64,000 nt of DNA from a virus. Taxonomy: Duplodnaviria; Caudoviricetes. The stretch spans positions 1 through 64,000 of the IMG/VR virus record IMGVR_UViG_3300033076_001145; one strand, given 5' to 3'. The translations under genes and the position numbers were made by a program. How positions within the stretch are numbered: the first letter of the stretch is position 1; each line of letters starts with the position of its first letter. The notes beneath the pieces were generated by a model. It searched no databases. It was given only the letters and a program-made list of their open reading frames with translations, and was not told the DNA's origin. Shown piece by piece: positions 1 to 59,572 of the stretch.

Positions 1-110
1 TGTGTGGTTGTTGGGGTTTGTGTGGTTGTTGGGGTTTGTGTGGTTGTTGGGGTTTGTGTGGTTGTTGGGGTTTGTGTGGTTGTTGGGGTTTGTGTAGTTG
101 TTGGGGTTTG
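1..110. repeat. 18-bp tandem repeat (tgtgtggttgttggggtt), about 5-6 copies, encoding TQTPTT on the minus strand
   Basis: Directly visible at the window start. Confidence 0.9.
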
Positions 111-2795
111 TGTTTGTGTTATAGTTGGGGTTTGTGTTTGTGTTTGGGTTGGAGTTGATGTCATAGTGGGGGTTTGGGTAGAGGTCGATGTTTGAGTTGG
201 AGTTTGCGTTTGCGTTGGTGTAATTGTACTTGTTTGCGTTTGCGTTGGTGTAATTGTACTTGTTTGTGTTTGTGTTGGAGTTTGTGTTGATGTTTGCGTT
301 GGAGTTGGTGTGGATGTTGGAGTTGGTGTTTTGGTCACATTTGTTACTTGGCAAGCGGCGAAATATTGTCCATTTGGAGAACCAACTATTGTCCCAATAC
401 CTGTTAATAATATTAAAGTTTCTGTGACGATTTGTTTATCACTAACAACAAAAGTCGCATACGATGTCCTGTCAACAAATTGTAAAGTTATAGTTGATTG
501 TCCCGGTAATATGGTATTATAGTAAGTTAAGTCTCCAGTGTCAAAGGTGAATTGAGTGTTATTATTTAAAAATATTCCATTGCCAGGACTAGTTGGGTCT
601 GCCCATTGTAATAATGTTAAATCACACAAAGGTGTTTGAGTTACCGTAGGTGTTACTGTTGGGGTACTGGTGGTTGTTGGGGTAATTGTAGGTGTTTGAG
701 TTGTTGTTGGAGTAATAGTGGATGTACTAGTTATAGTTGGAGTTTGAGTTGTTGTTGGAGTTTGTGTAGGGGTAGAACTTTCAACAGGAGTCATAGATAC
801 AGTAGGTGTAATTGTTGGGGTGTTAGTAATAGTTGGGGTAATTGTTGTAGTACTGGTGATGGTAGGGGTTTGGGTCACTGTAGGGGTTTGAGTATTAGTA
901 GGGGTTTGAGTTGGAGTATTAGATGGGTTAGGTGTATTGGACGGGGTAGATGTTACGGTGGTTGTTGGGGTTATTGTACTAGTTTGAGTAGTTGTTGGTG
1001 TTTGAGTAGTTGTTGAAGTTATCGTCGGAGTCTGTGTCATCGTCGGAGTTTGGGTTGGGGTTGGGGTATTACTTTCCGGTGGAGTTGGGGGAGGGGTCTC
1101 ACTAGGTGTTGGACTTTGACTAATTGTTGGGGTTAGTGTTGGGGATACTGACAAAGTTGGGGTATTACTAATTGTCGGGGTAATAGTTTGTGTTTGAGTT
1201 GGGGTTGGAGTTATTGTATTTGTAGGAGTAACAGTTTGTGTTATTGTTTGGGTAATAGTTGGGGTAATAGTTGATGTCTGAGTCGGTGTATTAGATGGGT
1301 TAGGTGTATTAGATGGGGTTGATGTTACAGTTGAGGTATTAGTAACAGTTGGTGTTTGAGTTGAGGTATTAGTGACAGTTGGTGTTTGAGTTGAGGTATT
1401 AGTAACAGTTGGTGTTTGAGTTGATGTATTAGTAACCGTAGGGGTATTAGTAACTGTAGGAGTATTAGTAACTGTAGGAGTATTAGATGGGTTAGGTGTC
1501 TCGGTTGGTGTAGAGGACACAGTAACAGTGTTAGTAATTGTAGGAGTTTGAGTTGATGTATTAGTAATTGTAGGAGTTTGAGTTGATGTATTAGTGACTG
1601 TGGGTGTATTTGTAACTGTTGGGGTAACCGTGGGTGTATTTGTAACTGTTGGGGTATTAGTAACAGTAGTCGTATTAGTCGGATTAGGAGTTTCAGGTGG
1701 AGTTGACGATGCGGTAACAGTGTTAGTAATTGTAGGAGTTTGAGTTGATGTATTAGTAATTGTAGGTGTTTGGGTTGATGTACTAGTAATTGTTGGGGTA
1801 TTTGTAACTGTTGGGGTAACTGAACCTGTGGGGGTTTGAGTTTGAGTCGATGTTTGAGTTGGACTATTAGTCGGATTAGGAGTTTCAGGTGGAGTTGACG
1901 ATACGGTAACAGTATTAGTTACGGTAGGTGTTTGGGTCGGTGTATTAGTAACTGTAGGTGTTTGGGTTGATGTGCTAGTAATTGTTGGGGTATTTGTAAC
2001 TGTCGCAGTATTAGTTGGGGTTGGTGTATTTGTTGATGTTGTAGTATTAGTTGGAGTGTTAGTAGGATTAGGAGTTTCAGGAGGAGTTGAAGAAACTGTT
2101 GTTGTTGGAGTAATAGTGGGGGTTTGTGTTGATGTTTTAGTAATTGTTGGGGTTTGTGTTGATGTTGCCGTTGGGGTTTTTGTTTGAGTTACTGACGGAG
2201 TTGGGGTTTTTGTTTGAGTTACTGACGGAGTTGGGGTTTTTGTTGGTGTGTTGGATAATGTTATTGATGGAGTAATGGTATTTGTTGGGGTAATAGATGG
2301 GGTTAAACTTATTGACGGAGTAATACTTGGGGTGACAGAAGTGGTAGGTGTGGGAGTCTTAGTCGGTATGTTAATCTCATCAACACAACATGGTTGGTCA
2401 GTAGTTGTCCCTGTTACAGGTCCATAACCATCTAATGAAAAAGAATCTAAAATTGTTACATAATTTTTCTCATTAAAATCTAACCTAACTGTTCCTTCAT
2501 TAGACACCAATTCAAACACAATTTCATAATTTCCAGCAATTGACGTTTGATTTTTTGAAAACTGATATTCTATATAATATAAAGTCTCAGAATTATTTAA
2601 CGGATTTACTTCTGAAATAACTGAACATGTTAGATTAGACAAATAAATCAAATTATTATCCGTATTAATTAAAGTAAGAGTTACTGAACTTGTTTGAGAT
2701 AAATTTGAAATTAAATTGTAATCACTTCGACCGTCTTTAACTACCTCGACTTTAATTTTTGATAATGTTGAATTTTGACTTATTAAGAATTCCAT
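1..2795 (-). CDS. Giant Thr/Pro-rich mucin-like protein (>=931 aa, 3' end outside the window). N-terminal ~120-aa domain paralogous to the neighbouring 117-aa protein; internal ~100-aa globular domain (~340-630).
   Basis: Absent from the ORF track, consistent with having no stop inside the window. ATG at 2795 overlaps the upstream stop (TAATG). Manual translation gives MEFLISQNSTLSKIKVEVVKDGRSDYN...QPCCVDEINIPTKTPTPTTSVTPSITP...; the same frame gives QTPTTT repeats at the window start. Confidence 0.9.
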   Translation of the reverse strand, partial: MEFLISQNSTLSKIKVEVVKDGRSDYNLISNLSQTSSVTLTLINTDNNLIYLSNLTCSVISEVNPLNNSETLYYIEYQFSKNQTSIAGNYEIVFELVSNEGTVRLDFNEKNYVTILDSFSLDGYGPVTGTTTDQPCCVDEINIPTKTPTPTTSVTPSITPSISLTPSITPTNTITPSITLSNTPTKTPTPSVTQTKTPTPSVTQTKTPTATSTQTPTITKTSTQTPTITPTTTVSSTPPETPNPTNTPTNTTTSTNTPTPTNTATVTNTPTITSTSTQTPTVTNTPTQTPTVTNTVTVSSTPPETPNPTNSPTQTSTQTQTPTGSVTPTVTNTPTITSTSTQTPTITNTSTQTPTITNTVTASSTPPETPNPTNTTTVTNTPTVTNTPTVTPTVTNTPTVTNTSTQTPTITNTSTQTPTITNTVTVSSTPTETPNPSNTPTVTNTPTVTNTPTVTNTSTQTPTVTNTSTQTPTVTNTSTQTPTVTNTSTVTSTPSNTPNPSNTPTQTSTITPTITQTITQTVTPTNTITPTPTQTQTITPTISNTPTLSVSPTLTPTISQSPTPSETPPPTPPESNTPTPTQTPTMTQTPTITSTTTQTPTTTQTSTITPTTTVTSTPSNTPNPSNTPTQTPTNTQTPTVTQTPTITSTTTITPTITNTPTITPTVSMTPVESSTPTQTPTTTQTPTITSTSTITPTTTQTPTITPTTTSTPTVTPTVTQTPLCDLTLLQWADPTSPGNGIFLNNNTQFTFDTGDLTYYNTILPGQSTITLQFVDRTSYATFVVSDKQIVTETLILLTGIGTIVGSPNGQYFAACQVTNVTKTPTPTSTPTPTQTSTQTPTQTQTSTITPTQTQTSTITPTQTQTPTQTSTSTQTPTMTSTPTQTQTQTPTITQTQTPTTTQTPTTTQTPTTTQTPTTTQTPTTTQTPTTT
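1289..2100. repeat. 192-bp (64-aa) periodic repeat units in the mucin-like gene
   Basis: The PNP(S/T)N-encoding motif starts at 1289, 1481, 1673, 1865 and 2057, exactly 192 bp apart. Confidence 0.85.
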
Positions 2796-3148
2796 TAGTT
2801 AGTTACGTTAATATATAATTTTTCCCTTTGTGGTAAAATATAGTCACCATCATCAGTAATTAAAGTGAATTCTGCCTCGAATTTCCCTGTTTGTCTTGTA
2901 TCGAATGATGAAAATTTATAATATATGTAATATTCTATTTTTGAGTTTGGTTCGATAAATATCTTTTCAACAAACCCTCCCTTTTTATTTAATATGACCT
3001 GACGACCATCTAAGGTGTCCTTCATAGAAAAATAAATTAAAGAATTCTCAATAACATCGGAAAAATTATCCAATGAACTTTCACCATCTTTAACGACTTG
3101 CATTTTTAAAAGAGGAAGCGTGGCGTTTTTCTTAATAAAAAATTCCAT
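2795..3148 (-). CDS. Small beta-rich virion protein, possibly BppU N-terminal/baseplate-anchor-like
   Basis: 117 aa; F-I-K-x-N-x-T-L-P start and YxF...T...GxFxxEF pattern; preceded by TATTTATA. Confidence 0.5.
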   Translation of the reverse strand: MEFFIKKNATLPLLKMQVVKDGESSLDNFSDVIENSLIYFSMKDTLDGRQVILNKKGGFVEKIFIEPNSKIEYYIYYKFSSFDTRQTGKFEAEFTLITDDGDYILPQREKLYINVTN

Positions 3149-3152
3149 ATTT

Positions 3153-3160
3153 TATAAATA
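3153..3160 (-). promoter_or_regulatory. Putative late promoter TATTTATA
   Basis: 4 nt upstream of the ATG at 3148; the motif recurs before many structural genes. Confidence 0.6.
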
Positions 3161-3176
3161 CGCCAAAAGTCGAATA

Positions 3177-4853
3177 TCAACTTTCTTTTCTCAAATTCCT
3201 ATCATAATGTTCGTATCTATCATGTTCGGTTGGTGTTAGTAATAAAATTGCGGGATTTAAATTACCTTTTCTCGTCTCTTGGAACATGTGGCTCATCCAA
3301 GTTTGTTCATAAGGGTGAGCCCACTTTGTATCTAAAAACATTCTTTTATTTCCCTCTCTTGTAACTAATTGAGGCCAATTACAGTAAAAAATTTCACCAT
3401 CCGCATATGCCAATCCCTTATGAATCTTAATGTTGTTAAATTTAGTTTTTGGGGCATTTGGGTCTAACCCTTGTTCAGGTAATTTAGTTTTATTTGGAAA
3501 ATATTCTTCTCTAACTACTTGTGGTACATTATACCAAGACCATTGCGTTGAATTGTCACCAAAAAACTCTGAGAAATTTAATTTAATGAAATCAAAATTT
3601 TCTTTAGAAACAATCTCAACTACTTTATCGTAAAGATTTTCAACATAACGGTTAAATCCGTTTCTACAAACTTCCCCTTCTTTGGGATAGAAGAACATGT
3701 CATCCTCAAAAAAGAAATACCCATCTAAATTTGTTTGTTCAAAATGTTCAGCAATAAACTGTCTTCCTCCACAAATTCCTAAATTTTCATGTTTCCAAAT
3801 TATTTCAAATCCATGTTCCTCACATATTTTAATATACTCATCATCCGTGGTCCTGTCTGTTGAGTTATTTAGAAGATATTTTTTTGGTTCATTTAAAAAA
3901 TTGATATCGTAATCAATAAAAGATTGAATCAATGTTTTTAATTGATTAGGACTATTAAATCCAATAACATATAATCCAATACTAGATAAATTTGTGTTTG
4001 TTTTTGAAGGTTTAATTTTTTTAGAAACTAAATTGTCATTTTTAACATCCTCAAAAAATTTACCGACTAACCCATTATCTTCAATTTCATAATAAGTTAT
4101 AAGATTTGGGTATTTGTATGTCATAATTGAAAATAGAGATTCTTCAGTACCCATTAATCCTTTATCTAAAGTGTCGTTTAATAATCCGTAATAAATTGAG
4201 TTTAATTCCGTAATATTTTCTTTTTTACCCCCAAAAAAACCTCCTCTCGCAACTAACTTTACGTCATTATCAGCCCAATTATTTATCTCGGGATATGAGA
4301 ATCCATGTATTTCTTTTTCCGCATTGTATGGGAAACAAATGAACATAAAGTCATTTGTTAAATCTGATATTTTGTCTAAAACTTTATCATGAGTAAAATA
4401 CCCCGGATGTACAGTATTTGTAATCCCTGCGTCAATCCAAAACAATTGTTCAGAATTAAATTTATCTAAAATTTTAGCGTCATTTAAAAGAAACATTTTA
4501 GACATAACCAAAGGATTATACATATCTAATTTAGCCTGCGTTGATTCCCTTAACCACCCTGATTGGCATAACCATTCTTCGTTATTCCTTATTTTTTGAA
4601 TTTTTTCAAAATACGGGTTAGTTTTAAACCACTCAACGTTCCTTTCAATAAATTGTGTGTTATCAGGATTTCTAATTTCATTAACAATTTTACTTAATTC
4701 ATAATCACCATAAATAATCATATCACAATCAACTTGTAATAATTTTTTAAACTTATCAATATAATGATTATAACTCCGAGACCATCCATCAGATAAATTA
4801 TCTCTTCCAATATCCCACAAACCAGTGACTAATGTTATTTTTATTTTTTTCAT
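3177..4853 (-). CDS. HtrL/YibB-like glycosyltransferase domain fused to a GT-A-like domain
   Basis: TLVTGLWDIGR, FWIDAG, GGFFGG, GTEE in the N-half; FFFEDDM in the C-half. Confidence 0.65.
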   Translation of the reverse strand: MKKIKITLVTGLWDIGRDNLSDGWSRSYNHYIDKFKKLLQVDCDMIIYGDYELSKIVNEIRNPDNTQFIERNVEWFKTNPYFEKIQKIRNNEEWLCQSGWLRESTQAKLDMYNPLVMSKMFLLNDAKILDKFNSEQLFWIDAGITNTVHPGYFTHDKVLDKISDLTNDFMFICFPYNAEKEIHGFSYPEINNWADNDVKLVARGGFFGGKKENITELNSIYYGLLNDTLDKGLMGTEESLFSIMTYKYPNLITYYEIEDNGLVGKFFEDVKNDNLVSKKIKPSKTNTNLSSIGLYVIGFNSPNQLKTLIQSFIDYDINFLNEPKKYLLNNSTDRTTDDEYIKICEEHGFEIIWKHENLGICGGRQFIAEHFEQTNLDGYFFFEDDMFFYPKEGEVCRNGFNRYVENLYDKVVEIVSKENFDFIKLNFSEFFGDNSTQWSWYNVPQVVREEYFPNKTKLPEQGLDPNAPKTKFNNIKIHKGLAYADGEIFYCNWPQLVTREGNKRMFLDTKWAHPYEQTWMSHMFQETRKGNLNPAILLLTPTEHDRYEHYDRNLRKES

Positions 4854-4854
4854 A

Positions 4855-6321
4855 TTAAAATCTAATTAAAGGTTCAGTACAACTAACACAATAAAATTTA
4901 AAACAAGAATTTAAAAAGTGAAACCCTGTCCAAGATGATTCCATATTGGCATCTATTGATGACATTCCAATTTCAAGTCCTTCGGCAAATGGCCACAAAT
5001 TTATACTGACTGAAAATTTATCTCTTTTATCCCAAGCATCAACAAAAGTTTTCAATTTTTCATTATTTTTAAATGTCATAAATTGCTCATTACAAACATG
5101 ACCCTCATCATAAAAATCAGTTTCCATTAATTTATATGGACCAATTTTGTGTCTCCAAAAACAATTATTCCAATCATGTTTGGCTTTAATAAAATGAGGT
5201 CTCTCAAAAAGAAAATCATACTCTGATTTTTTAAAAAAATCTAAAAATGATTTAATTTTATTTTCTTCGTATTCAGGACCAACCATCCAATCGGCATCAA
5301 AATAAATTATAAAATCGCTATTAGTTTCTGACGCCATTTTAATCGGGTAATACTTTAAATTGTAATTAAAACATCCGTTGGGATAAAATAAAGTTAGATT
5401 GTTTGGTACTATTTTGACTTCGCAATTTTTTATTTTTTTAGGTTTTTGGTCAGTAACAATTAAAACTTTATGATTTTTTGATATTTTATTCAAATCTTTA
5501 GCAAATTGAGTTGCAATATCATAATATTTTTTACCTATGGCAATTGTACAATAAGTGTATTTGTAATTAGTATTTAAAACATCATTATTAGTTTTCATGA
5601 TGTTATCGTATTCATTAAAAGGTACTGAATCAAAAGTTTCCGCATATCCAATACCTTTTTCAGGTATTAAATCAAATCTCTCCATGTTCTCATAAAAATC
5701 AAAGCTTGGGTTTCGTTCAAATCTCGAGTAATCCATAGCAATTGGTTTAGTATGAATCATAATTATTTTATCAATAATTGCAATTTTATCTTTAGGATAT
5801 CCTAGAATTTTAGGCCATATAAAATCCAATGCCGCTGCTGAGCGGGTTAAATTAAATGTTGGTAGTAATGTGTATAAAATATCTATTTTAAATAACGGTG
5901 CCGATATTTCCACAAAACTTGTGAATCTAAGAAGGTTACCTGGATGTTGCATAGTTATTAAATGTGACACGTGACCCCCTTGGCAAGGTTGAGATAAATA
6001 CAAATCAAAATTTTTAGATATTTCAAAAAATTCGTTTATCTCATTTACCGATATTTCCATGTCACAATCGGGAATCCAAACATATTCATAATTATCAAAT
6101 AGTATTTTATTGTCTGAAATTATATCATATGCTAAATTAAATTTTTCACCTTTTTTTTGTATAAAAAAATCTGATTTTTTTTTAAATTCTAATGATATAT
6201 CAGAATTATTTCCATAATATACCACAAATAAATCATAATTTTTTTTATCAGAATACCATTCAGTGTGGAGTGAATCATCACCTACACAACAAATGACAAT
6301 TGTTTTTTTAGTATCCCCCAT
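4855..6321 (-). CDS. DUF707-like GT domain fused to a second GT-A (GT6-like) domain
   Basis: YDLFVVYYG, WIPDCD, LSQP, FVEISAPLF, LDFIWP; C-half TIAIGKKY...IVTD...YFDAD. Likely start at MGDTKK (6321). Confidence 0.6.
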   Translation of the reverse strand: MGDTKKTIVICCVGDDSLHTEWYSDKKNYDLFVVYYGNNSDISLEFKKKSDFFIQKKGEKFNLAYDIISDNKILFDNYEYVWIPDCDMEISVNEINEFFEISKNFDLYLSQPCQGGHVSHLITMQHPGNLLRFTSFVEISAPLFKIDILYTLLPTFNLTRSAAALDFIWPKILGYPKDKIAIIDKIIMIHTKPIAMDYSRFERNPSFDFYENMERFDLIPEKGIGYAETFDSVPFNEYDNIMKTNNDVLNTNYKYTYCTIAIGKKYYDIATQFAKDLNKISKNHKVLIVTDQKPKKIKNCEVKIVPNNLTLFYPNGCFNYNLKYYPIKMASETNSDFIIYFDADWMVGPEYEENKIKSFLDFFKKSEYDFLFERPHFIKAKHDWNNCFWRHKIGPYKLMETDFYDEGHVCNEQFMTFKNNEKLKTFVDAWDKRDKFSVSINLWPFAEGLEIGMSSIDANMESSWTGFHFLNSCFKFYCVSCTEPLIRF

Positions 6322-6325
6322 TATT

Positions 6326-6856
6326 TTATTTTTTAGCCTCAATATTTAAGCTCATTAATAACCCATTTATCTTATCCATGTGCGGTAAATATGATTGACT
6401 ATAATCGTCAAGTTCGGAATGTTCAGTTTTTCTCCAATCATATTTTATCACCTCTTTAAATCCTATTTCTTTTAAATCCTCTGAAATAGAATTAAAATCC
6501 CACGCACAATAATGGTAATTTTGTTCATACGTTTGTCCACCATATAATAAACCCAATAAAGGTCTAATATCTCTATATGTGTTGTAATACTCAACTATGG
6601 ATTCAAAATTAGGTACGGATATTCTAAGAACACCTCCATCTTTTATTTTTTTATACCAATTTTCTAAAACTTTTTTATAAACATTTCTACCAAAATGCTC
6701 TAAAACATGAGAACAATATATCAAATCAACAGAATTATCATCAAATGTTTCTAACTTTGTAATATCAGAAACAATATCGACCCCCTCAATATCTCTAACA
6801 TCAATATTTATAAATCCGTCTAAAATTTTGTCACCACAACCTAAATGTAATTTCAT
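6326..6856 (-). CDS. SAM-dependent methyltransferase (type 11-like)
   Basis: LHLGCG, SHVLEH, GGVLRISVP. Confidence 0.85.
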   Translation of the reverse strand: MKLHLGCGDKILDGFINIDVRDIEGVDIVSDITKLETFDDNSVDLIYCSHVLEHFGRNVYKKVLENWYKKIKDGGVLRISVPNFESIVEYYNTYRDIRPLLGLLYGGQTYEQNYHYCAWDFNSISEDLKEIGFKEVIKYDWRKTEHSELDDYSQSYLPHMDKINGLLMSLNIEAKK

Positions 6857-7824
6857 ATATTAAATTTAATTAAAATATTATTAATAAAATTGAAAATGTA
6901 ATCATCATAAAAATATTCTGGTAGTATATTGTCAGCAAAAATTGGTTCAGATAACATATTTCTATATTTAATATTGTCTGAATTAATTTCTATTACTTTA
7001 TTAACAATATCGTCAATTGAATTATAATCATGACAATTTATAAACGCCTTTGGGTTATACCCATCCTCAAGTATATTTGGGTTCCCCCAAAATATGGGGA
7101 TTGTGTTTGACGCAAATCCCTGTATTATTTTTTCCTGAGAGAAATAAGGGGCACAAGTAGATTGTATTTGTAAAGAAAATTTTGATTCCGATTGGAACAA
7201 TATTTTATTAGTATAGTCGTCTTTTTCAGAATGTCTTCTTGATACTCTATCACATTCATTATCATTTGTTTCAAATCCTCCACATGAAACAACTTTTTTA
7301 TAATTATTTAATTTTTCAAAAATTTCTCTCCTGTATGGGTTTGTTGATGTCTGTATTACAGTTGCAAATTTATTCTTTGAGTTTATAATTTTTTTTACGT
7401 CTTTCTTTTCTGTCATCCATTTAAAAGGTTCGTCATATAATTTACATTCGTCATACAATTGCCAAGCCGTTGAGACCAAAAAAAACGGCATGTTTAATAA
7501 TCGCTCATGTTTTAACTCAGGATTTGCTCTACCAATTACATAATATTGTTCTCCTTTATTTAGATAAAATCCCATATCACCATATTCCGAATCCAAATAT
7601 ATTTTAATCGCGTTCGGAAATTCTTCTTCAACCTTACCATTTTCATTTGTAAAAAAATCAATTGCATTAGTGTTAGTTGAGTGATTGGCGTAAAACACAA
7701 TGTCTGGAGAGTCATTAGTAACAACTACATTATATTTTTTTTTTAAAATACTAATAATGTAATTAACCATATAATAGCTACAATTATTCCAAAAATTAGC
7801 TCTTGTTACTTTAATTGTTTTCAT
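6853..7824 (-). CDS. GT10 alpha-1,3/4-fucosyltransferase-like protein
   Basis: K..F...KFSL...YFSQEKIIQGF...IPIFWG...YNPKAFIN, a variant of the GT10 motif. Confidence 0.75.
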   Translation of the reverse strand: MKTIKVTRANFWNNCSYYMVNYIISILKKKYNVVVTNDSPDIVFYANHSTNTNAIDFFTNENGKVEEEFPNAIKIYLDSEYGDMGFYLNKGEQYYVIGRANPELKHERLLNMPFFLVSTAWQLYDECKLYDEPFKWMTEKKDVKKIINSKNKFATVIQTSTNPYRREIFEKLNNYKKVVSCGGFETNDNECDRVSRRHSEKDDYTNKILFQSESKFSLQIQSTCAPYFSQEKIIQGFASNTIPIFWGNPNILEDGYNPKAFINCHDYNSIDDIVNKVIEINSDNIKYRNMLSEPIFADNILPEYFYDDYIFNFINNILIKFNI

Positions 7825-8531
7825 ATAAAATATTCTAATAATTTAGTCGTTTCTTCATTATATCCTCCATTATCATGAATAAAAATTGGGTCCTCATTTT
7901 CAAAATTAACCTCTCCATTAATGATTTTAATGTTATTTTTAGCATTGAATGTGTTTAAAACTAATGAACATTTGGTATCTATTTCGACCCCATTTCCTGT
8001 TAGGTACTCTATCTGCCAATTACCTTGGTCACATAACCATTTATAATCCCTATGTATAATTTTATCTAAAACATTTAAATAATCTAATGGTTTTGCACAG
8101 TGTACTCCAGCATTTAAAAATCTGAATTCTGAATTTATTTTTTTATCATCATATAAATGACTAACTTCAGTATTAGGCCATAAATTTTTTTCCGCACCAA
8201 ATAAAATATTGGTGTTATATTTTTCCATAATTTCAGGAATTTTAGATATGCCCCCGACATACCCAACATCAGTTGCGTCTAATAAAACAAAATATTCATA
8301 TTTATTCAGAATTTCATTTTTAATAAATTCATAAAATTTATAAATTCTATAATATGTAAATTTATAATAATAACTTTCATTTAAAATACCTTCTTTTATT
8401 GAGCAAAATCTTAAAGAAAAATAATCCTCTTTTCTAATATCGTTTAATATTTTTTTTTCGAATGTTGGGTTAAAGTGCTCTGACAAATCGTATAAAAACG
8501 TAATTACCGCAATTTTTTTTTTGTTTTCCAT
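7821..8531 (-). CDS. PLOD/LH3 GT-domain-like glycosyltransferase
   Basis: LLDATDV, ILFGAEKNLWP, RFLNAG, DQ, PIFIHDNG. Confidence 0.7.
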   Translation of the reverse strand: MENKKKIAVITFLYDLSEHFNPTFEKKILNDIRKEDYFSLRFCSIKEGILNESYYYKFTYYRIYKFYEFIKNEILNKYEYFVLLDATDVGYVGGISKIPEIMEKYNTNILFGAEKNLWPNTEVSHLYDDKKINSEFRFLNAGVHCAKPLDYLNVLDKIIHRDYKWLCDQGNWQIEYLTGNGVEIDTKCSLVLNTFNAKNNIKIINGEVNFENEDPIFIHDNGGYNEETTKLLEYFI

Positions 8532-8533
8532 AG

Positions 8534-9166
8534 TTAATTTATTATTTGAATATAAAAATTATGTATTAAATCATTATCAGACCTATAAGGAATTCCTTTA
8601 CCAAAAATACTTACAGGTATTTCAGTTTCCCAAAAAAACGTTAATTCTCTACCTCTCATATTACTAATAACTGTATTACTTCTTTCGTCCCTCTCAATAA
8701 AAGGATATTTTGGGAAAATTGTTAACTCGTCACCAACAAAATCAAAGAATTGTTTGTGGTGAGCATTACCTCTATATTGATTATCATAAAGAAATGAGAA
8801 TTCATCATATTTTGATGGAATTGCGACAAATCCTGATTTTGATATTTTTTCTAAAAATGAAATTAAATCTATTGGGTTAAAAACATCTTCTAACGTATGT
8901 GAGCAAATTGAAAAGTCAAATTTTCCATTTTCTTCCACAAATAATAAGATTTCTTTCCAAGTATTTTTATCTTCTAAATTTATGTTAAAAAATTTAACCC
9001 CGTCCATATTAAACTCAATAGAGTCTGCAACATATTTACATTCAGGATACGACCAAAAATTTGCAGATGCTCCAACATCTATAGATTTTAAATTGTTGTT
9101 TTTAATATAATTTTTTATAAATTCTCGTTTACCACCCAAGTCATTATATTCCCATGATTTTATCAT
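8534..9166 (-). CDS. SAM-dependent methyltransferase-like protein
   Basis: IDVGAS, FDFSICSHTLED. Confidence 0.7.
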   Translation of the reverse strand: MIKSWEYNDLGGKREFIKNYIKNNNLKSIDVGASANFWSYPECKYVADSIEFNMDGVKFFNINLEDKNTWKEILLFVEENGKFDFSICSHTLEDVFNPIDLISFLEKISKSGFVAIPSKYDEFSFLYDNQYRGNAHHKQFFDFVGDELTIFPKYPFIERDERSNTVISNMRGRELTFFWETEIPVSIFGKGIPYRSDNDLIHNFYIQIIN

Positions 9167-9191
9167 AATTTTTTATTTTTTATTTTTTAGT

Positions 9192-10139
9192 TTATATTTT
9201 TAACAAATTTAATGTATGTTTTATTCTATTTTCTTTTGATAGATAATTTTCATAGTATTCTCTCGCATTTTTTGAAACAAAGTTTAAAAAATGTTTATTA
9301 TTTATAACTTCTTTAAATTTGTTTTCAATTAGTTTTGAGTGTTTTTCCTCACCTAATCTATCTTTTAGAACATCTCTTTTTTTAGGTAAGTCTAATTGAA
9401 TTGGGATAGAAATGTAGTGGTAATTAGGGATTAACGCAGGATTTAATGTTGTAACAAAATCAAATCTTAGTAATGGTACTCCCATTGCCATACATTCAAT
9501 ATCCCTATAACATAAGTCACCATTAGCAACCCCACCTATTGATAAACATATTTCATGGTCGCTTAGATTGTCAAAATAATCTTTATTTACAACTTTATTG
9601 GTTTCGGACAATATTTCTTTATCAATAAAATTGACAATTGGTCGGTATTCAGTATTACCTTTAAAAAAAAGTCTTGGAATTAATTCTGTCTTTTCTTGTC
9701 TTTTTTTGTAATAAATTTCTAAATCAATTACATCTTGTTGAAAAAATATCCATGGTAAATATTTGTTAGCGTTTTCGCGTGTATGATGAACAATTTGGTC
9801 AGGTATGTACTGAGAATATAAAACTTTTTTTAAATGTGGATTGGATTGTTCGAGTAAAATCCCACCAGTCATCTGTTCGGCAACTGATAAAATCCAAAAA
9901 TCTCCACTATCTTCGTCTTCAATAACATACTCACATTCCATTAACTCTAAGTATTCATGGGTTCTCTTTTTTAATTGGATTTTCATTCGACTAAAATGTG
10001 CCCCATCGTAATACCTATTTTCCACAACATTATGACTCTTTTTTAATTCTTCAGTTAAGTCATCCCAAAATAAATTGTATTCTCGATAATATCGTGTATT
10101 TTCATTACAAGGGTTATGGATGATTAAATTTCTTCTCAT
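9192..10139 (-). CDS. GT-B glycosyltransferase-like protein (GT47/GT90-like C-terminus)
   Basis: LFFKG, CLSIGG...CYRDIECMAMGVP, PNYHY, NAREYY. Confidence 0.6.
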   Translation of the reverse strand: MRRNLIIHNPCNENTRYYREYNLFWDDLTEELKKSHNVVENRYYDGAHFSRMKIQLKKRTHEYLELMECEYVIEDEDSGDFWILSVAEQMTGGILLEQSNPHLKKVLYSQYIPDQIVHHTRENANKYLPWIFFQQDVIDLEIYYKKRQEKTELIPRLFFKGNTEYRPIVNFIDKEILSETNKVVNKDYFDNLSDHEICLSIGGVANGDLCYRDIECMAMGVPLLRFDFVTTLNPALIPNYHYISIPIQLDLPKKRDVLKDRLGEEKHSKLIENKFKEVINNKHFLNFVSKNAREYYENYLSKENRIKHTLNLLKI

Positions 10140-11224
10140 GATATAAAATCGTTTATTTTATTTAACGCAGAATCAATAACTTGATGCATATCATAGTACT
10201 TATATTCCGCCAATCTCCCCCCAAAAAAAGTATTCTTCACATTTTTAGTTTTTTCCAAGTACTTTTCAAATACTTTTTGATTTGTTTCATCATTTATTGG
10301 ATAGTAAGGTTCTGAATCTTTTTCCCATTCAATTGGGAACTCCTTAGTTATAATAGTTTTAGTGCTATTAGAATTTTCAAAATGTTTATGTTCAATAATT
10401 CTAGTATATGGAATATCGATGTCAGTAAAATTCATTTGTCCAACCCCTTGGTAGTTTTCAATATCTAAGGTTATGTGTTCAAATGATAGTGGCCTGTATC
10501 CTAAATAACCAAATTCATAATTAAAAAATTTATCTATAGGACCGGTGTAAATTATCTTTTTACATAAACTATCATAATGTTCTTTATTTTTAAAATAGTC
10601 AACATTTAATTTAACTTCGATACCTTCTAATAATTTTTCAAATAATTCAGTATAACCATTTTCAGGTATCCCTTGGTATTTGTCAAAAAAATAATTATTA
10701 TCAAATGTAAGTCGTACTGGTAATCTTTTAATAATAAATGGAGGTAACTCTTTTGGGTCTTTCATCCATTGTTTTGTGGTATATCCTTTTATTAATTTTT
10801 CATATACTTCTTTACCAACTAATGATAATGCTTGTTCTTCCAAGTTTTTTGGGTCCCCTTTAAATTTTTGTTCATCAATTTTTTCTAATACTTCCTTTGG
10901 TGAATTAATGTTCCATAGTTTGTTAAAAGTGAACATATTAAATGGTAATGAATATAATTCATTATTATAATTGGCAATTGCATGGTGCCTGTAATTATTA
11001 AATTTTATAAATCTATTAACATATTCCCATACCTTTTCATTGGATGTGTGGAAAATATGAGGTCCATACTTATGTACATTAATCCCTTCTATTTTTTGAG
11101 TGTAACAGTTACCACCGATATGGTCTCTCTTATCGATAACCAAACATTTATACCCTAAATCCGTAAGTTCTCTAGCGCAAACCGAGCCAAATAACCCTGA
11201 CCCAACAATTAAAAAATCATACAT
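10136..11224 (-). CDS. glf: UDP-galactopyranose mutase
   Basis: GSGLFG, HIGGNCY, HKYGPHIFHT, YQGIP, EPYYP, GRLAEYKYYDMHQ. Confidence 0.97.
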   Translation of the reverse strand: MYDFLIVGSGLFGSVCARELTDLGYKCLVIDKRDHIGGNCYTQKIEGINVHKYGPHIFHTSNEKVWEYVNRFIKFNNYRHHAIANYNNELYSLPFNMFTFNKLWNINSPKEVLEKIDEQKFKGDPKNLEEQALSLVGKEVYEKLIKGYTTKQWMKDPKELPPFIIKRLPVRLTFDNNYFFDKYQGIPENGYTELFEKLLEGIEVKLNVDYFKNKEHYDSLCKKIIYTGPIDKFFNYEFGYLGYRPLSFEHITLDIENYQGVGQMNFTDIDIPYTRIIEHKHFENSNSTKTIITKEFPIEWEKDSEPYYPINDETNQKVFEKYLEKTKNVKNTFFGGRLAEYKYYDMHQVIDSALNKINDFIS

Positions 11225-11225
11225 A

Positions 11226-12473
11226 TTAATATAAATTACCTGTTATTCTTTGTCCCCAACCTTTTGATTCTGAATGTGGCCAAACAACCCAATATTTTGG
11301 GTTTTTTGTTGTTTGGAATTCTCTCCACACTTTACAATACCCATCGGGGTCGTTTTTCATTCTTTGGATTTCTCCTTTATCAGCATCTTTTCTGAAAACT
11401 GTTTCATCGTTTTCATCGTGGAATGCGACCGCCCAAAAATCGTAATCATTTTCAGGAACCTGTGAATACCCAATATCAATACAGTGTTTGAATATTGAGG
11501 CAAACGAATCCATCCATTCTTCTTCTGAAGAATAATTATATGTGTTTGGTGGGTATTTTTTATCTATTGTTTCTTGTTGTACCGCTCTACGTGAAAACAA
11601 CAATCCTGAATATTTTTCATAATCACGAAGGGTTCTTACTTTACCAAATCCATACTTTCCGTGGTCCATTGGGGGTTCATTATCCATTCCAAATAAGGCT
11701 CTGTTTTTCTTGTGACAAAATGAATTTCTTTCAACCCATTTTTTATCATCATCCCATTGTTTTGTTCTACCCTTTCTTGTGTATTCGTGCCAAATCAATG
11801 TTTTATGTGGGTGAAATAAATCATATCCGTGAGTATATGCTCTTGCGGCGATTGAGATTTCTTCCCCATGAAAATAATAATCGGGGTCGTGTTGAACCTC
11901 TTTCGCAAATTGTCCTAACGTAAAACAAAAATGTGCCGAATAGAAACGTGACGTTACAGGTTCAGTTAAGTTTTGCCAACCAGGAATTGTTTCAGGAAGG
12001 AAAAATACTGCCCCTTCAGGAATAAACCTATCAAACGTCATTCTCCACGGCTCTTGTACTCTACCTTGTGGGTCATTATCAGGGTCAAATGATGAAACAT
12101 AACCTGTAAGTAATGGTTTTTTATGACCTTTCTTTTGTAATTGTTTAATCATTTTAATCATCTCATCATCCCAATTTGGGGCAAATCTCATATGAGAGTC
12201 TATTTGAAGAGTGTATTTCTCGTTTGTATATTGTTGTTGTATTTGATTTCTTGCCCAACACGCACCTTTTGAATCTTGGTAAGGTATGTCCAATACTTTA
12301 AATCTAACATCTCCTGTGTATTCAGATAAATCGTCAAATTTATCATCAGGGTGAAATTGTCTTGCGATAGAAAAAACTAAATTTTCAGGTTTTTTTGCAT
12401 TATCGATTGCGGATTTTATTGTTTTAACAAGTTCGGGGTCTCGATATGAGGCAATTTGAATAAAAATTTTCAT
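11226..12473 (-). CDS. GT60 (Pfam GlcNAc)-type polypeptide N-acetylglucosaminyltransferase
   Basis: IFIQIASYRDPE, GACWAR, LQIDSHMRF..WD, FYSAHFCF, DP..YFHGEE, RAYTHGYDLFHP, WHEY.R; matches the Dictyostelium Gnt1/Gnt2 and T. cruzi OGNT family motifs. Confidence 0.85.
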   Translation of the reverse strand: MKIFIQIASYRDPELVKTIKSAIDNAKKPENLVFSIARQFHPDDKFDDLSEYTGDVRFKVLDIPYQDSKGACWARNQIQQQYTNEKYTLQIDSHMRFAPNWDDEMIKMIKQLQKKGHKKPLLTGYVSSFDPDNDPQGRVQEPWRMTFDRFIPEGAVFFLPETIPGWQNLTEPVTSRFYSAHFCFTLGQFAKEVQHDPDYYFHGEEISIAARAYTHGYDLFHPHKTLIWHEYTRKGRTKQWDDDKKWVERNSFCHKKNRALFGMDNEPPMDHGKYGFGKVRTLRDYEKYSGLLFSRRAVQQETIDKKYPPNTYNYSSEEEWMDSFASIFKHCIDIGYSQVPENDYDFWAVAFHDENDETVFRKDADKGEIQRMKNDPDGYCKVWREFQTTKNPKYWVVWPHSESKGWGQRITGNLY

Positions 12474-12523
12474 ATTTTTTATTCAAAAAGTATTTGAGAA
12501 AGTAAAAAAATTAAATAGTTAAA

Positions 12524-14815
12524 TTATAAACTGTCATTACAATCTTTTAGGGTTGCAAATGGTCCTCCGTTAATTGTTGAGTTAGTGTATGTGATTTCTA
12601 CACCTTCGATGTAGTATGTGGTCACATATGCACATCCGTTAAATCCTCCTGGTGTTGTTATTGAATATATTTCACCTTCTTGGAACGCTCCGCTTGGGTA
12701 ATTTATATTCTCAACTGCGAATTTATTAATTATTGATTTCGCAATCGAATATGATGTTGATGGGCTATTCGCAAATGTCGCAGTAAGGTCTCCCCATGTA
12801 TTACCTGAAAAATCTGTAAGAGTTATTGACAAATAATCATCTAACCCAATGGTCGTAACCGATGCACTTCCATATAAATTTGTAAATGGACCTCCGGTAT
12901 TTGTAAGTAATGCTTGGGTTCTAATTCTACTTGGTAAATCAGATATTGTATCCCCAGCCAAAATATTAACAGTCATAGTTATTAAGCTTGTATCATTGAC
13001 TTTATATCCACCAACAGTAAATGAACAATTCTGATAAAATGTGTCGGTTATAAAGAAATTTCTATTAACCGCAAAATTATTTGAAGTATTAACATACACA
13101 CTTGATGAAGGTATAAATACTGCTCTGGTTACCATCCTACTTGGAGTATTGGTCGGGGTATTTGACGGTTGGGGAGTTTGTGTTGAAGTTGATGTTGGTG
13201 TTGGAGTTGACTGTTTTGTTGGAGTAACTGTATTAGTTGGGGTATTTGTTGGGGTTTTGGTAACACTTGGAGTTGGGGTATTTGATGGGTTTGGAGTATT
13301 ACTTGGAGTTTTCGTTGGTGTGTTTGTTGGAGTTTCGCTTGGAGTAACGCTATTTGTTGGTGTATTCGTTGGAGTAAGTGTCTGAGTTACTGTTGGAGTA
13401 TTACTCGGTTGAGCGGTTTGAGTTGATGTTTTTGTTGGAGTGTTAGTCGGGGTGTTAGTTTGTGTTACCGTATTACTTGGGGTATTGGTTGGTGTTTGAG
13501 TATTTGTAACCGTTGGGGTATTTGACGGATTTATTGGTTCGTTTGTTGGTGTATTAGTTGGTGTGACGGTATTAGTCGGAGTGTTAGTAGGTGTGGTAGT
13601 GTTAGTAGGGGTATTTGTTGGTGTTGTGGTTGTTGTAACTGTTGGCGTGTTTGATGGGTTTGGAGTTTCTGAGTTTGTCGGAGTAATAGTATTTGTAGGA
13701 GTGTTTGTAGGAGTGTTTGTCGGTGTAATAGTGTTAGTGGGTGTTGGAGTATTGGTTGGGGTTTGGGTCGGGGTTGCACTATTAGTTGAGGTATTTGTTG
13801 GAGTACTGGTAATAGTAACTGTTGGGGTACTGGATGGTTGGACTGATTCAGTTAGTGTTGGGGTTATTGTCGGTGTAACAGTATTAGTGGGAGTATTGGT
13901 CGGTGTAATTGTATTGGTAGGAGTGTTAGTTGGTGTTACGGTATTAGTCGGAGTGTTAGTAATTGTAGGAGTATTAGTCGGAGTTGTAGTATTAGTCGGG
14001 GTCTGCGTCTTTGTCGGAGTGTTAGATGGATTTGGAGTTTCAGTAGATGTCGGAGTCGTAGTGTTTGTTGTCGTAATACTTGGAGTCAATGTATTAGTAA
14101 CCGTAATTGTCGGTGTTGGTGTGTTAGTTGGTGTTTCAGTATTTGTTGGTGTATTAGTTGGTGTAATTGTGTTGGTCGGAGTTTGAGTTTTTGTTGGAGT
14201 GTTAGATGGGTTTGGAGTGTTTGCCGGTGTTCCTGTTACAGTTTGAGTTGTAGTATTAGTGGGGGTGTTGGTTGGGGTAATAGTATTAGTCGGTGTATTA
14301 GTGGGAGTAACTGTATTAGTTGGGGTTTGTGTTGTCGTCGGTGTATTAGTCGGTGTAACGGTGTTAGTCGGGGTTTGAGTTCTTGTGGGGGTGTTAGATG
14401 GGTTTGGGGTTTCAGAATTTGTAGGTGTGATTGTGTTTGTCGGAGTATTTGTTGGCGTTACAGTAGGTGTGACTGTAGAAGTATTTGTGGGAGTATTTGT
14501 TGGTGTCTGAGTCGTAGTAGGAGTTTTGGTAGTTGTATTTGTAACAGTAATTGTTGGGGTAATACTTGGAGTTGGTGTTATGGTACTTGTAGGGGTCGGC
14601 GTTGGGGACTCACAACTAAATGCAACTGTTAGTGTTTGGTCAATACTTTGGAAATAAAAATTAAAATTACCATTATAACAAGTTTCATAGGTATAGGTAT
14701 ATGGAAAACTCAAATCAGACCCGATTAAAGTGTTGGACCCATCTGACGTATTGTAAAAAAACAAATCAAATGTATATGATTGAAAATTTTCCGAATTAAA
14801 AACTATACTAGCCAT
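12524..14815 (-). CDS. Mucin-like virion protein: ~68-aa N-domain, ~490-aa Thr/Pro tract, ~200-aa C-terminal globular domain
   Basis: 763-aa ORF dominated by TPTNT/TPTVT repeats; overlaps the upstream gene; no signal peptide apparent. Confidence 0.85.
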
Positions 14816-16718
14816 ATGTTATATCATTTACCAATCCAGAACAATCCGGACATCTTGTATCAAACAATAAAAATTTATTTTTTAAAACATTGAAATTATG
14901 AACCACTTCCGCATATGTTAATGGTTCGACATACATTCTAAATTGTGAAATTGCCCCGTCAAATGTTCCACCAAAAGTTGGTTCTAATAATATGTTGGTC
15001 GTTAATGCCGATAAAGATGTTCCTGACAGTATATTATTTGGCATACACTCAGGGTCTTGTTGGTAGGTTAGACCTGATAATGTCGTTGGACATCCTGATA
15101 ATGTTAGGTTCTCCCTAAGTCCCTGAGTTCCTCCACCCCAACTAATGTTAAATGGAACACCTAATTGCTTTTCCTTTTCCGTGTTTAGTCCTCTTGGAAT
15201 AATTTCTTCAAATCCATTTATAACAAAAAACAATCTTCCATTAATATAAATTTTTAATGAACCTAATCTATAATTTGTTTGAGATAACCATTTTTCATTA
15301 AGTTCAATAACCTCAATTTGTTCGGCAACTGTTCCTCCTGTATGTGTAAATGGTGGGGCAATTAATGATGTGGTATCATGAGATAAAGAATTAACATAAT
15401 ACTCGTTGGTTATTAATCCTAATCCACCTCTATAGTATAAATCACACTCATCAAAATATGAGTTTCTTTCCCAAACGCAATCAATCAAAAACCAATGTTC
15501 TTGATTTAAATAACTTGGATTAACTGTTTGACAGTATTGATTAATGGTATTTGTTGAGCAGTATTCTGTTATTGTATATCCTGTTGTATAAGTAATACCT
15601 GTCGTTGGACACGTCCCTGTTACCTCACATCCTCCTGTGAATTTTAATACTTTAACGCACACTTTAGGATTACTTGGGTCACCCGACAGTCGTATCGACA
15701 TTGAGTTTGATAGAGTATCTAATAATGGATTTTTATCACCATTTGCAACATTTGTGGTGTTATTACATCCACAATTACAAGAAGTATTATGTTGTTCGGT
15801 ATATACCAATGGTTCATACACCTCAACACATCTAGAATTAGTTACCGCACTATTTGAACATGAGCATGTTTTGAAACATTCTGAAAGTCCTGAAGTTACT
15901 CTTGTATAGCCTGAATCTGATAATGGGAACCCGTCAGCATGATGATAGTACTTATTTTCAGACCTTGTTCCAAAGTAGAAAAAGGTATTTCTATTCTCAG
16001 GATAAACTTCATTTAATGTTGTTTGATTTGGTAATGGATAAAACTCATCATCCAATCTTGGTTTTAATAACATTTCAGAAGTCCAACCTTTGTTAGTTCT
16101 ATTTGGAAAAACTTCGTAATCATATCCGTGTAATTTAAAAAATCCTTGGTGAAATCCTCCATATAGTTGATTGTAAATCCCTATCGTCGACCCTGTTTTT
16201 GTTACAATATTATATAATGTTTGTTTAGTATTACCTGAAAATCTATTATTGACACTCGTGTTACCTGTGACCGGAATAAATTTTAATCTTCTATCATAAT
16301 GATACCTATCCCATTTTGAATCACCTGTAAATAACCCCATTGTATAATATAGAGTTTCGCCTGAAATTTGAGTTGTTAGTCCGTTATCGATACCTGTTAA
16401 TCCAATATCACATAAAGAAGTTGCAGTATAACATGTTAAATCGTCATTATTTGGATTATAGTAATTTAAAGAAACTAATGTGTTTCCTGTATTATAGTCA
16501 CCGTAATTTAGACTGAACATTCTGGAACTACCCGAGTTATTTAAATCAAAGTGAATTGGTAATCTATTACCGTCATTAATACCAATAATTTGATTAGAAA
16601 AAACAACTTCTTCGTTATAATCCCTTTCATCCGACGCTAAGGAAATATCAAAAATTGGTTTATGTTGAGTGATAAACCATCTTTTATAGTTATATTGATT
16701 AATATTCTGTTGAGACAT
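14808..16718 (-). CDS. Cys-rich probable virion protein with a LamG/ConA-like C-terminal signature
   Basis: LKIYING...[18 protein letters not shown]; CSC and CNCGC clusters; TATTTAT upstream. Confidence 0.6.
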
Positions 16719-59519: not shown

Positions 59520-59546
59520 ATATATGATATAAATACTTAGAAAAAA

Positions 59547-59572
59547 TAAACCCCTCAACTTGGAGGGGTTTA
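59547..59572 (-). terminator. Rho-independent terminator
   Basis: taaacccctc-aacttg-gaggggttta followed by a T-rich run on the minus strand. Confidence 0.75.

Follow-up and report, generated by a model that had tools for sequence, protein, structure and literature searches.

The first 64,000 nucleotides (nt) of the IMG/VR virus record IMGVR_UViG_3300033076_001145 (Duplodnaviria; Caudoviricetes), hereafter the window, contain two genes for mucin-like proteins, here called gene A and gene B, whose long Thr/Pro tracts are punctuated by a short motif at ruler-like spacing. The motif delimits the units of a two-level tandem repeat, and the layout of this repeat is old and conserved at the protein level; this is the part of our account that we hold with high confidence. 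There is good support for purifying selection on both segment length and motif, strongest for gene A. The favoured reading as a whole, to which we give a probability of roughly 0.55, combines the conserved two-level repeat with glycosylated spacers and with the motif as a joint or recognition point.

Two-level repeat of the Thr/Pro tracts

In gene A, the first five copies of the motif follow the pattern T-P-N-P-(T/S)-N-(T/S)-(P/T) and stand in exact steps of 64 amino acids (aa), or 192 nt (Table 1). The original prediction, made from the letters of the window alone, had claimed a motif every 192 bp, and the positions it gave fall inside each copy. It had described the motif as P-N-P-S-N-T-P, which holds for the copies at residues 433, 497 and 621, the last of them overlooked at that time, but not for the first three, which read NPTNTP, NPTNSP and NPTNTT. 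An attempt to divide the 124-aa interval between the last two copies (aa 497-621) into 64 + 60 aa failed; a degenerate site, TPPESNTP, was found by eye in the unit print at about 74 aa into the interval. The 192-nt period was detected by Tandem Repeats Finder (TRF) with 4.6 copies, 77% matches and 0 indels, and the autocorrelation of gene A peaks at 64 aa (z ~4). Placed in register, the units of gene A show a DNA identity of 0.63-0.80 against a background of ~0.53, and the gene holds 158 exact self-matching 30-mers.

In gene B, the motif reads (N/Q)PS(N/S)TP and its copies are spaced by 64, 60, 64, 60, 43, 40, 40 and 40 aa, precisely as claimed before. Neighbouring units placed in register are 0.60-0.74 identical at the DNA level, again against a background of ~0.53. 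No long period of gene B reaches the TRF threshold, its autocorrelation has a weak peak at 372 nt, and the gene contains 0-1 exact self-matches of at least 24 nt and no self-matching 30-mers. The units are thus similar in register, yet far from identical, which means that they are duplicates, but not young ones. Near-identical recent copies, named in the original prediction as one of two observations that would count against it, were not found, and the divergence of codons between units that it reported is evident from the identities given above and from the use of all four Thr codons.

The lower level of the repeat is a sub-repeat of 10 residues with the consensus T-N-T-x-T-P-T-N-T-P, visible as a DNA autocorrelation peak at 30 nt in both genes. 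When gene B is cut at the motifs, the units are seen to consist of four sub-repeats (40/43 aa) or of six (60-64 aa). Units open with [S/T]-E-T-P-(N/D/Q/E)-P-S-x-T-P and continue with T, according to a consensus of the 79 sequences, from both families, that match the motif pattern, a few of them by chance. Within the consensus, P is present at +1 with a frequency of 0.89-0.92, S at +2 with 0.83-0.84 and T at +4 with 0.92-1.0. Glu or Asp occupies position -3 in 45-79% of motif copies, and Lys or Arg occupies +7 in 31% of the gene B copies, both being among the few charges of the tract. The motif count is 9, compared to a mean of 0.02 in shuffles preserving the alternating phase, and a degenerate DNA pattern of the motif, run over the whole 208-kb contig, gave 9 matches, located only in genes A and B, while a control pattern gave 0. 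Furthermore, the codons of the motif vary among copies and its Ser is encoded by both TCN and AGT, which argues for selection on the motif at the protein level.

Thr or Ser occupies 94-96% of one alternate phase, in agreement with the earlier description of these residues at nearly every second position. This alternation passes through the motif in phase, where the ladder lapses locally, Thr being replaced by Asn and Ser between prolines. Thr and Ser together constitute 52-62% of the tracts and Pro 15-20%, with a Pro every 4-6 residues and with Gly nearly absent. The tracts are therefore long, dominated by Thr, Ser and Pro, and periodic at 10, 40/43 and 60-64 aa, as is characteristic of mucin-type tandem repeats rich in Pro, Thr and Ser (PTS). 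The unfolded conformation of such domains is likewise predicted for the gene B tract, for which AlphaFold2 (AF2), run on the full-length protein with a shallow alignment of 6 sequences, gave a predicted local distance difference test (pLDDT) score of ~30 and zero secondary structure over aa 70-587. The same prediction argues against a folded repeat, in which the T-x-T ladder would build a beta-solenoid or a fold-back sheet with the motifs as turns, in the manner of TxT ice-binding proteins. Such a fold could draw on the strict Thr alternation, on the equal-length classes of segments and on the odd number of long segments (5, 5, 7, 7) in four genes, but prolines as frequent as here (17-20% in this comparison) are unsuited to regular sheets, and Gly for polyproline II (PPII) bundles is missing, so we consider a folded tract very improbable indeed.

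Several other identities of the repeat were tried and rejected. The motif does not correspond to the bacterial N-glycosylation sequon (D/E-X-N-X-S/T), as its acid stands at -3 instead of -2 and Pro fills both X positions; the replacement of the motif Asn by Asp, Glu or Gln in orthologues also disfavours the sequon. The tracts do not run in Gly-X-Y triplets, which sets aside a collagen-like stalk of the BclA type. Residues preceding the motif Glu do not fit the T4 prohead-protease site, L/I-x-E. Finally, recent gene conversion from A to B is ruled out, with zero shared words of at least 24 nt.

Segment lengths in related phages

When the C-terminal domain of gene B was used in an exhaustive HMMER search, four proteins were returned, one of them spurious and repetitive, leaving three real relatives, one of which begins with a stretch of 13 residues directly preceding the C-domain. 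A scan of viral contigs with the single C-domain sequence of gene B found nothing, while an alignment-based scan succeeded. Pattern scans led to two IMG/VR contigs and seven metagenome contigs that carry syntenic loci, and the order of the gene for a 636-aa protein, gene B and the gene for a GT60-type glycosyltransferase is the same in both IMG/VR contigs. The relatives comprise about ten B-type genes in other phage contigs and three full-length A-type orthologues (G001, L026 and G002).

In the B-type genes, the spacings are 63, 60, 64, 60, 43, 40, 40, 40 aa in L009 and L022; 63, 40, 72, 60, 43, 40, 40, 40 aa in L023; 64, 60, 60, 60, 60, 60, 43, 40, 40, 40 aa in L010; 64, 60, 60, 60, 64, 60, 43, 40, 40, 40 aa in L024, where some copies are degenerate; and 61, 63, 60, 60, 62, 61, 60, 43, 40, ... 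aa in L025. All seven genes whose N-terminus is complete have their first motif at residue 136, and the block 60-43-40-40-40 lies ahead of the C-domain in all complete genes except the L020 variant. Homologues thus do not space the motif at random: the 40/43 and 60-64 classes, the place of the first motif and the terminal block are all kept, and the proposal that selection acts on segment length, beyond mere slippage, is supported. The B-type gene of L024 (4657-7281) has a peculiarity of its own: a segment of ~33 aa at the start of the open reading frame (ORF) recurs at aa 522-554 and the usual N-domain is missing, which could possibly be due to a chimeric assembly or a rearrangement.

In gene A of G001, the motifs are found at the exact residues of the window (241, 305, 369, 433, 497 and 621) and read TPDPSGTP. 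L026 has four 63-aa units with the motif PPNPSSTP, and in G002 the spacings of 60 and 64 alternate over six intervals with the motif (D/E)PSxTA. The first motif is located at 241-243 in four of four genes, the window included, and residue 722 marks the start of the Cys-bounded domain in the window, G001 and L026, compared to residue 834 in G002. In L026, 6 residues have been lost by the sixth motif, and 6 are regained ahead of residue 722. Among the relatives, the gene A motif is DPSGTP, NPSSTP or (D/E)PSxTA while that of gene B stays xPSNTP, and the claim that one motif is common to both tracts consequently stands for this genome and not for its relatives. A 798-aa ORF of L010 was rejected as a gene A orthologue and represents a multi-domain enzyme.

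Regarding the age of the layout, the cassette enzymes of the window and G001 share 81-91% protein identity with zero internal gaps, and at four-fold third positions they are 0.41-0.59 identical, with 0.35 expected by chance. At the same positions, the tracts are 0.38-0.42 identical compared to a chance value of 0.33, and are thus near saturation. The 581-aa tract of gene A nevertheless aligns ungapped between the two genomes at 71% identity, with register 0 best throughout, and the tract of gene B shows one 1-residue indel. Expressed as gap events, this amounts to 1 in 1068 tract residues versus 2 in 2238 residues of folded neighbours. A low-complexity repeat is therefore as length-stable as enzymes under purifying selection, which is the strongest statement for this pair of genomes.

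The two genes differ in how their units evolve. Units of gene A are 0.65-0.80 identical within a genome and 0.59-0.72 identical to their positional counterparts between genomes, which is concerted evolution, the units being homogenised separately in each genome, with an own motif variant in each. In gene B, concerted evolution was not found, and the units are positionally orthologous, four of them reaching 0.78-0.91 identity on the diagonal. The self-matching repeats of gene A mean that substrates for slippage are present, and its length is kept nonetheless; its stability is not easily explained mechanically. As the layout has been kept despite near-saturated synonymous sites and despite the homogenisation of gene A, segment length and motif behave as selected characters.

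Several points weigh against this conclusion. Gene B has almost no exact internal repeats of at least 24 nt, and its length stability may therefore be mechanical, as there is nothing to slip on, while folded neighbours are likewise near indel-free at the divergence between the window and G001. Between clades, the count of long (60-class) units ranges from 4 to 7, and in L023 the pair 40 + 72 replaces 60 + 64 because a 72-aa unit was duplicated, the net difference in length being only 12 residues. In sister metagenomes, two variants (L020, 47-2257, and L021, 661-2685) have 100% nucleotide identity to L023 (8384-10624) apart from length gaps, one being without a 30-nt decamer and one without a 216-nt unit; these length variants are either assembly collapse or very young polymorphism. 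In addition, the sequences compared are short-read metagenome assemblies of repeats, and the independent lineages are few, forming about three deep clades. If the variants are real, they are frequent, yet they are unfixed between L009 and L022, which differ by 9% of nucleotides with zero indels, and such a pattern is expected under purifying selection.

The same observations bear on a neutral explanation, according to which motif and spacing would be functionless remnants of old higher-order duplications, preserved since slippage substrates were lost and too little time has passed. The near lack of exact self-matches in gene B, the indel-free enzymes beside the tracts and the unequal number of units between clades agree with it, and the in-register DNA similarity of adjacent units is what duplication predicts. 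It accounts poorly for gene A, which is rich in repeats and undergoes homogenisation, but keeps four 63-64-aa units and the 581-aa tract in three genomes, as well as for the compensation seen in L026. Moreover, both families and all clades keep the motif as protein while its codons vary, and length variants arise on identical backgrounds, yet none has been fixed between L009 and L022. We consider a neutral relic unlikely.

Glycan cassette and possible roles of the motif

The GT60-type enzyme is encoded in a glycan cassette located between genes B and A, and is a candidate for the initiating polypeptide N-acetylglucosamine (GlcNAc) transferase, judging by its family. In Trypanosoma cruzi, enzymes of this family initiate mucin-type glycans by placing alpha-GlcNAc on Thr, and GT60 alpha-GlcNAc transferases are the initiating enzymes for the mucin-like proteins of Dictyostelium as well (PMC3769586). 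Homologues of the enzyme were found in four records only of the phage collection, with 47-49% identity, all of them cultured jumbo phages: XacN1 and Xoo-sp13 of Xanthomonas, and CM1 and RAS14 of Stenotrophomonas, with XacN1 at 49%. At least two virion glycoproteins were reported for XacN1, and ORF334, its GT60 homologue, was named as the candidate enzyme (PMC5852040). T-x-T-P tracts are present in XacN1 in the large hypothetical proteins ORF350, ORF369 and ORF370, beside tail-sheath genes, and the tract of ORF369 ends with three tandem APSNTP. ORF325 (3313 aa), which lies close to the GT60 gene of the same phage, was rejected as it is not mucin-like. In RAS14, PSNTP occurs twice in the protein WAX21786.1, which also contains a ~33-aa unit with TPDATPS as its punctuation. 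The pattern P-(S/T)-N-T-P-(T/A) occurs 8, 2 and 5 times in three genomes with a GT60 homologue, versus 1, 0 and 0 times for a control pattern; these counts, the sole evidence of this kind, are suggestive at best of a tie between the motif core and the GT60 enzyme.

According to the favoured reading, the tracts would be unfolded, densely O-glycosylated spacers, to which the adjacent cassette, led by GT60, would add the glycans in the cytoplasm of the host, and they would carry a fast-evolving distal domain. The motif would be the one place in each unit where the Thr ladder lapses, and could act as a recognition point or as a joint that is bare or modified differently, a role that we propose tentatively. 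At ~0.3 nm per residue for extended and PPII chains, the motifs would divide the glycan brush into fixed contour lengths of ~12 nm per 40 aa and ~19 nm per 60-64 aa. The beads-on-a-string design together with the cassette would fit a glycosylated virion appendage, and the location in the virion is a prediction made from sequence. As for the distal domain, the C-domain of gene B shares 58% and 35% identity with its orthologues, compared to 86-91% for the neighbouring enzymes, and such divergence is typical of a host-binding domain or the distal domain of a phage fibre, which suggests a similar role here. Folded alone, this domain is predicted to be beta-rich with a pLDDT of 73, and no clear structural relatives were found (Z <=6.1 against PDB, TM <0.35 against BFVD). 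The N-domain of gene B gave an Ig/FnIII-like match in a fold search, with a Z of 6.7, which is a generic match. Neither gene A nor gene B has a hydrophobic signal-type N-terminus, as judged by eye from the translations.

Alternatively, the P-S-x-T-P core might be a preferred acceptor, priming or docking site for GT60, or for a second transferase acting on Ser, in which case the regular steps would ensure uniform coverage or arrange the side chains as in a proteoglycan. The position of the GT60 gene next to gene B is consistent with such a cue, as is the recurrence of P-(S/T)-N-T-P in the T/P tracts of the cultured jumbo phages XacN1 and RAS14, which carry GT60 homologues. Related to this, Ser is found at +2 in 83-84% of copies within tracts that otherwise use Thr, and a large second glycan island without export genes is present beyond the cassette, on the opposite strand. 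The motifs of genes A and B differ in G001 and G002, though, while the single cassette GT60 remains 90-91% identical across genomes, and a strict docking site shared by both proteins is thereby weakened. Priming sites would also cap the spacing rather than fix exact lengths, and in three copies of gene A the Ser is replaced by Thr. A glycosylation cue thus seems rather improbable to us as the primary role of the motif.

Another possibility is registration, where each motif would bind a repeating site of the virion, such as the lattice of its capsomers or sheath, or would bind a partner chain, as in a pairing of A with B. A match to a lattice predicts both the exact spacing and the position of the first motif, the same 60/64 classes are present in both families, and the acid at -3 and the Lys or Arg at +7 stand out among the few charges. 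Against it, the number of long units changes from 4 to 7 between clades, the A and B motifs diverge in other genomes, and a homo-oligomer of identical chains would stay in register even without conservation of length, so that registration appears highly doubtful.

A more far-reaching proposal, which we find unlikely on present sequence data, is that A and B are length-calibrated virion glycoprotein fibres, a phage-made 'proteoglycan ruler' in which the periodic E-TP-x-PS-x-TP would provide modification or docking points. Such sites would attach a second, larger glycan from the island without export genes, or would contact the capsid or tail lattice, and selection would hold every segment between sites at a fixed contour length. 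If true, the proposal would describe a so far undescribed way of making a measured, sugar-coated appendage from a disordered chain.

Compared to known systems, the tracts resemble mucin-type PTS domains (animal, T. cruzi and the mucin-like ones of Dictyostelium) in being rich in Thr, Pro and Ser, predicted to be unfolded, arranged in tandem repeats and interrupted by small Cys-bounded globular domains, and a GT60-family enzyme is encoded alongside the tracts. On the other hand, genes A and B are phage-encoded, their products lack a signal peptide and are predicted to be made in the bacterial cytoplasm, Thr stands strictly at every second residue, and two repeat levels are punctuated by a motif. 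Diverged orthologues keep their unit lengths here, whereas the repeat arrays of mucins are typically polymorphic in length. BclA of the Bacillus anthracis exosporium has collagen-like GXX repeats with glycosylated Thr, and its repeat number sets the length of the filament. In a similar way, a repeat stalk, predicted to be glycosylated, here links an anchoring N-terminus to a globular domain at the C-terminus, with the repeats setting length, but there is no Gly-X-Y or triple helix, and the unit lengths are conserved, while BclA varies between strains.

Among phages with glycosylated virions, mycobacteriophages have been described to have glycosylated virion proteins and glycosyltransferases of their own (Freeman et al. 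2023, as cited in PMC12582341). In these phages and in XacN1, as in the window, phage glycosyltransferases adjoin structural-type proteins with Thr-rich extensions, although the tracts reported here are far longer (490-580 aa) and have ruler-like punctuation, of which no description was found in those papers as far as they were searched. The linker of adenovirus E1A is a disordered linker of conserved length, explained by 'conformational buffering' (bioRxiv 10.1101/2021.05.14.444182). In both cases, selection apparently acts on the dimensions of the disordered region and not on its exact sequence; the tracts are distinguished by a tenfold greater length, by their repetitive sequence, by probable glycosylation and by a conserved motif that divides them into segments. 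Mucin-like tandem repeats are already known, as are glycosylated virion proteins of phages and disordered linkers of conserved length, and in the literature searched no description was found of their combination in a phage with ruler-like punctuation.

Thr/Pro low-complexity tracts are usually treated as linkers that expand and contract freely, whereas a predicted-disordered tract of ~500 residues keeps its segment lengths in the present case. It represents a concrete and testable instance of selection on the dimensions of a disordered, probably glycosylated chain, and adds an architectural rule to what appears to be a phage-encoded system of mucin-type glycosylation. The existence of a cultured relative, XacN1, with its GT60 homologue, T-x-T-P tracts and reported virion glycoproteins, makes these ideas testable at the bench, with this phage as a possible model.

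Genome setting and neighbouring features

The window covers the initial 64 kb of a contig of 208,634 bp, which is assigned to the linear class with an estimated completeness of 71%. By its content, including a gp23-type major capsid protein, a gp20-type portal and a T4-type large terminase, it belongs to a T4-like jumbo phage. The nearest phage records have only 37-45% identity to the major capsid protein of the window, and megablast of the first 16.8 kb against the phage collection gave no match. Long Thr/Pro tracts are confined to genes A and B in the whole contig. The features of the window are collected in Table 1.

Table 1. Positions of the mucin-like genes, their domains and motif copies, and of neighbouring and structural genes in the window
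Feature	Position	Strand	Remark
Gene A, mucin-like protein, 931 aa seen	3..2795	minus	3' end lost at contig start
Gene A N-terminal domain, aa 1-140	2376..2795	minus	71-76% identity in orthologues
Gene A Thr/Pro tract 1, aa 141-721 (581 aa)	633..2375	minus	equal length in window, G001 and L026
Gene A motif copy 1, aa 241-248, TPNPTNTP	2052..2075	minus	
Gene A motif copy 2, aa 305-312, TPNPTNSP	1860..1883	minus	
Gene A motif copy 3, aa 369-376, TPNPTNTT	1668..1691	minus	
Gene A motif copy 4, aa 433-440, TPNPSNTP	1476..1499	minus	
Gene A motif copy 5, aa 497-504, TPNPSNTP	1284..1307	minus	
Gene A motif copy 6, aa 621-628, TPNPSNTP	912..935	minus	124 aa beyond copy 5
Gene A Cys-bounded globular domain, aa 722-821	333..632	minus	
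Gene A Thr/Pro/Gln tract 2	3..332	minus	motif-free; perfect 18-nt repeats at contig edge
117-aa protein directly upstream of gene A	2795..3148	minus	paralogue of gene A N-domain
Remaining cassette genes between B and A	3177..11224	minus	including ORFs without assignment
HtrL/YibB-like	3177-4853	minus	
Methyltransferase	6326-6856	minus	
GT10 (fucosyltransferase-like)	6853-7824	minus	
PLOD-type glycosyltransferase	7821-8531	minus	
Glf (UDP-galactopyranose mutase)	10136-11224	minus	
GT60-type glycosyltransferase	11226..12473	minus	Pfam PF11397, E 1.6e-67; directly downstream of gene B
Gene B, mucin-like protein, 763 aa, complete	12524..14815	minus	
Gene B N-terminal beta-sandwich domain, aa 1-67	14615..14815	minus	AF2 pLDDT 70-85
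Gene B Thr/Pro tract, aa 68-554	13154..14614	minus	10-aa sub-repeats
Gene B motif copy 1, aa 136-143	14387..14410	minus	
Gene B motif copy 2, aa 200-207	14195..14218	minus	
Gene B motif copy 3, aa 260-267	14015..14038	minus	
Gene B motif copy 4, aa 324-331, SVQPSSTP	13823..13846	minus	
Gene B motif copy 5, aa 384-391	13643..13666	minus	
Gene B motif copy 6, aa 427-434, PINPSNTP	13514..13537	minus	
Gene B motif copy 7, aa 467-474, TAQPSNTP	13394..13417	minus	Ser codon AGT
Gene B motif copy 8, aa 507-514	13274..13297	minus	
Gene B motif copy 9, aa 547-554	13154..13177	minus	abuts C-terminal domain; junction motif also in orthologues
Gene B C-terminal beta-rich domain	12527..13153	minus	fast-evolving
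636-aa protein	14808..16718	minus	overlaps gene B start by 8 nt
gp23-type major capsid protein	48853-50721		
gp20-type portal	54616-56430		
T4-type large terminase	57768-59558		

The full-length orthologues of gene A have 1385-1644 aa and a C-terminal domain of ~350 residues. The contig begins within gene A, where an 18-nt repeat coding for TQTPTT is present in 6.3 perfect copies (1-113), which means that the assembly probably broke there and that the C-terminal half of gene A is missing here. The 117-aa protein is 31% identical to the gene A N-domain (E 5e-14), and the pair is also present in G001 and G002. The 636-aa protein has exactly 636 aa in three genomes, with 86-88% identity. Its look-alikes in the Atlas are phage-only clusters, one of them with a Laminin_G_3 share of 36%. 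Pfam and PHROGs gave no match for the N-terminal, middle and C-terminal domains of A and B, nor for the 636-aa and 117-aa proteins.

The major capsid protein has 622 aa, and the best-scoring of its two Pfam Gp23 stretches covers residues 357-607 only. The tracts are also associated with a strong positive GC skew, of 0.67 at 1-2000 and 0.20-0.35 at 12000-16000 of the window, and with long plus-strand ORFs across them (for example 13563-14186). As the coding strand of the tracts is rich in ACN and CCN codons, both are by-products of the tracts and not separate features.

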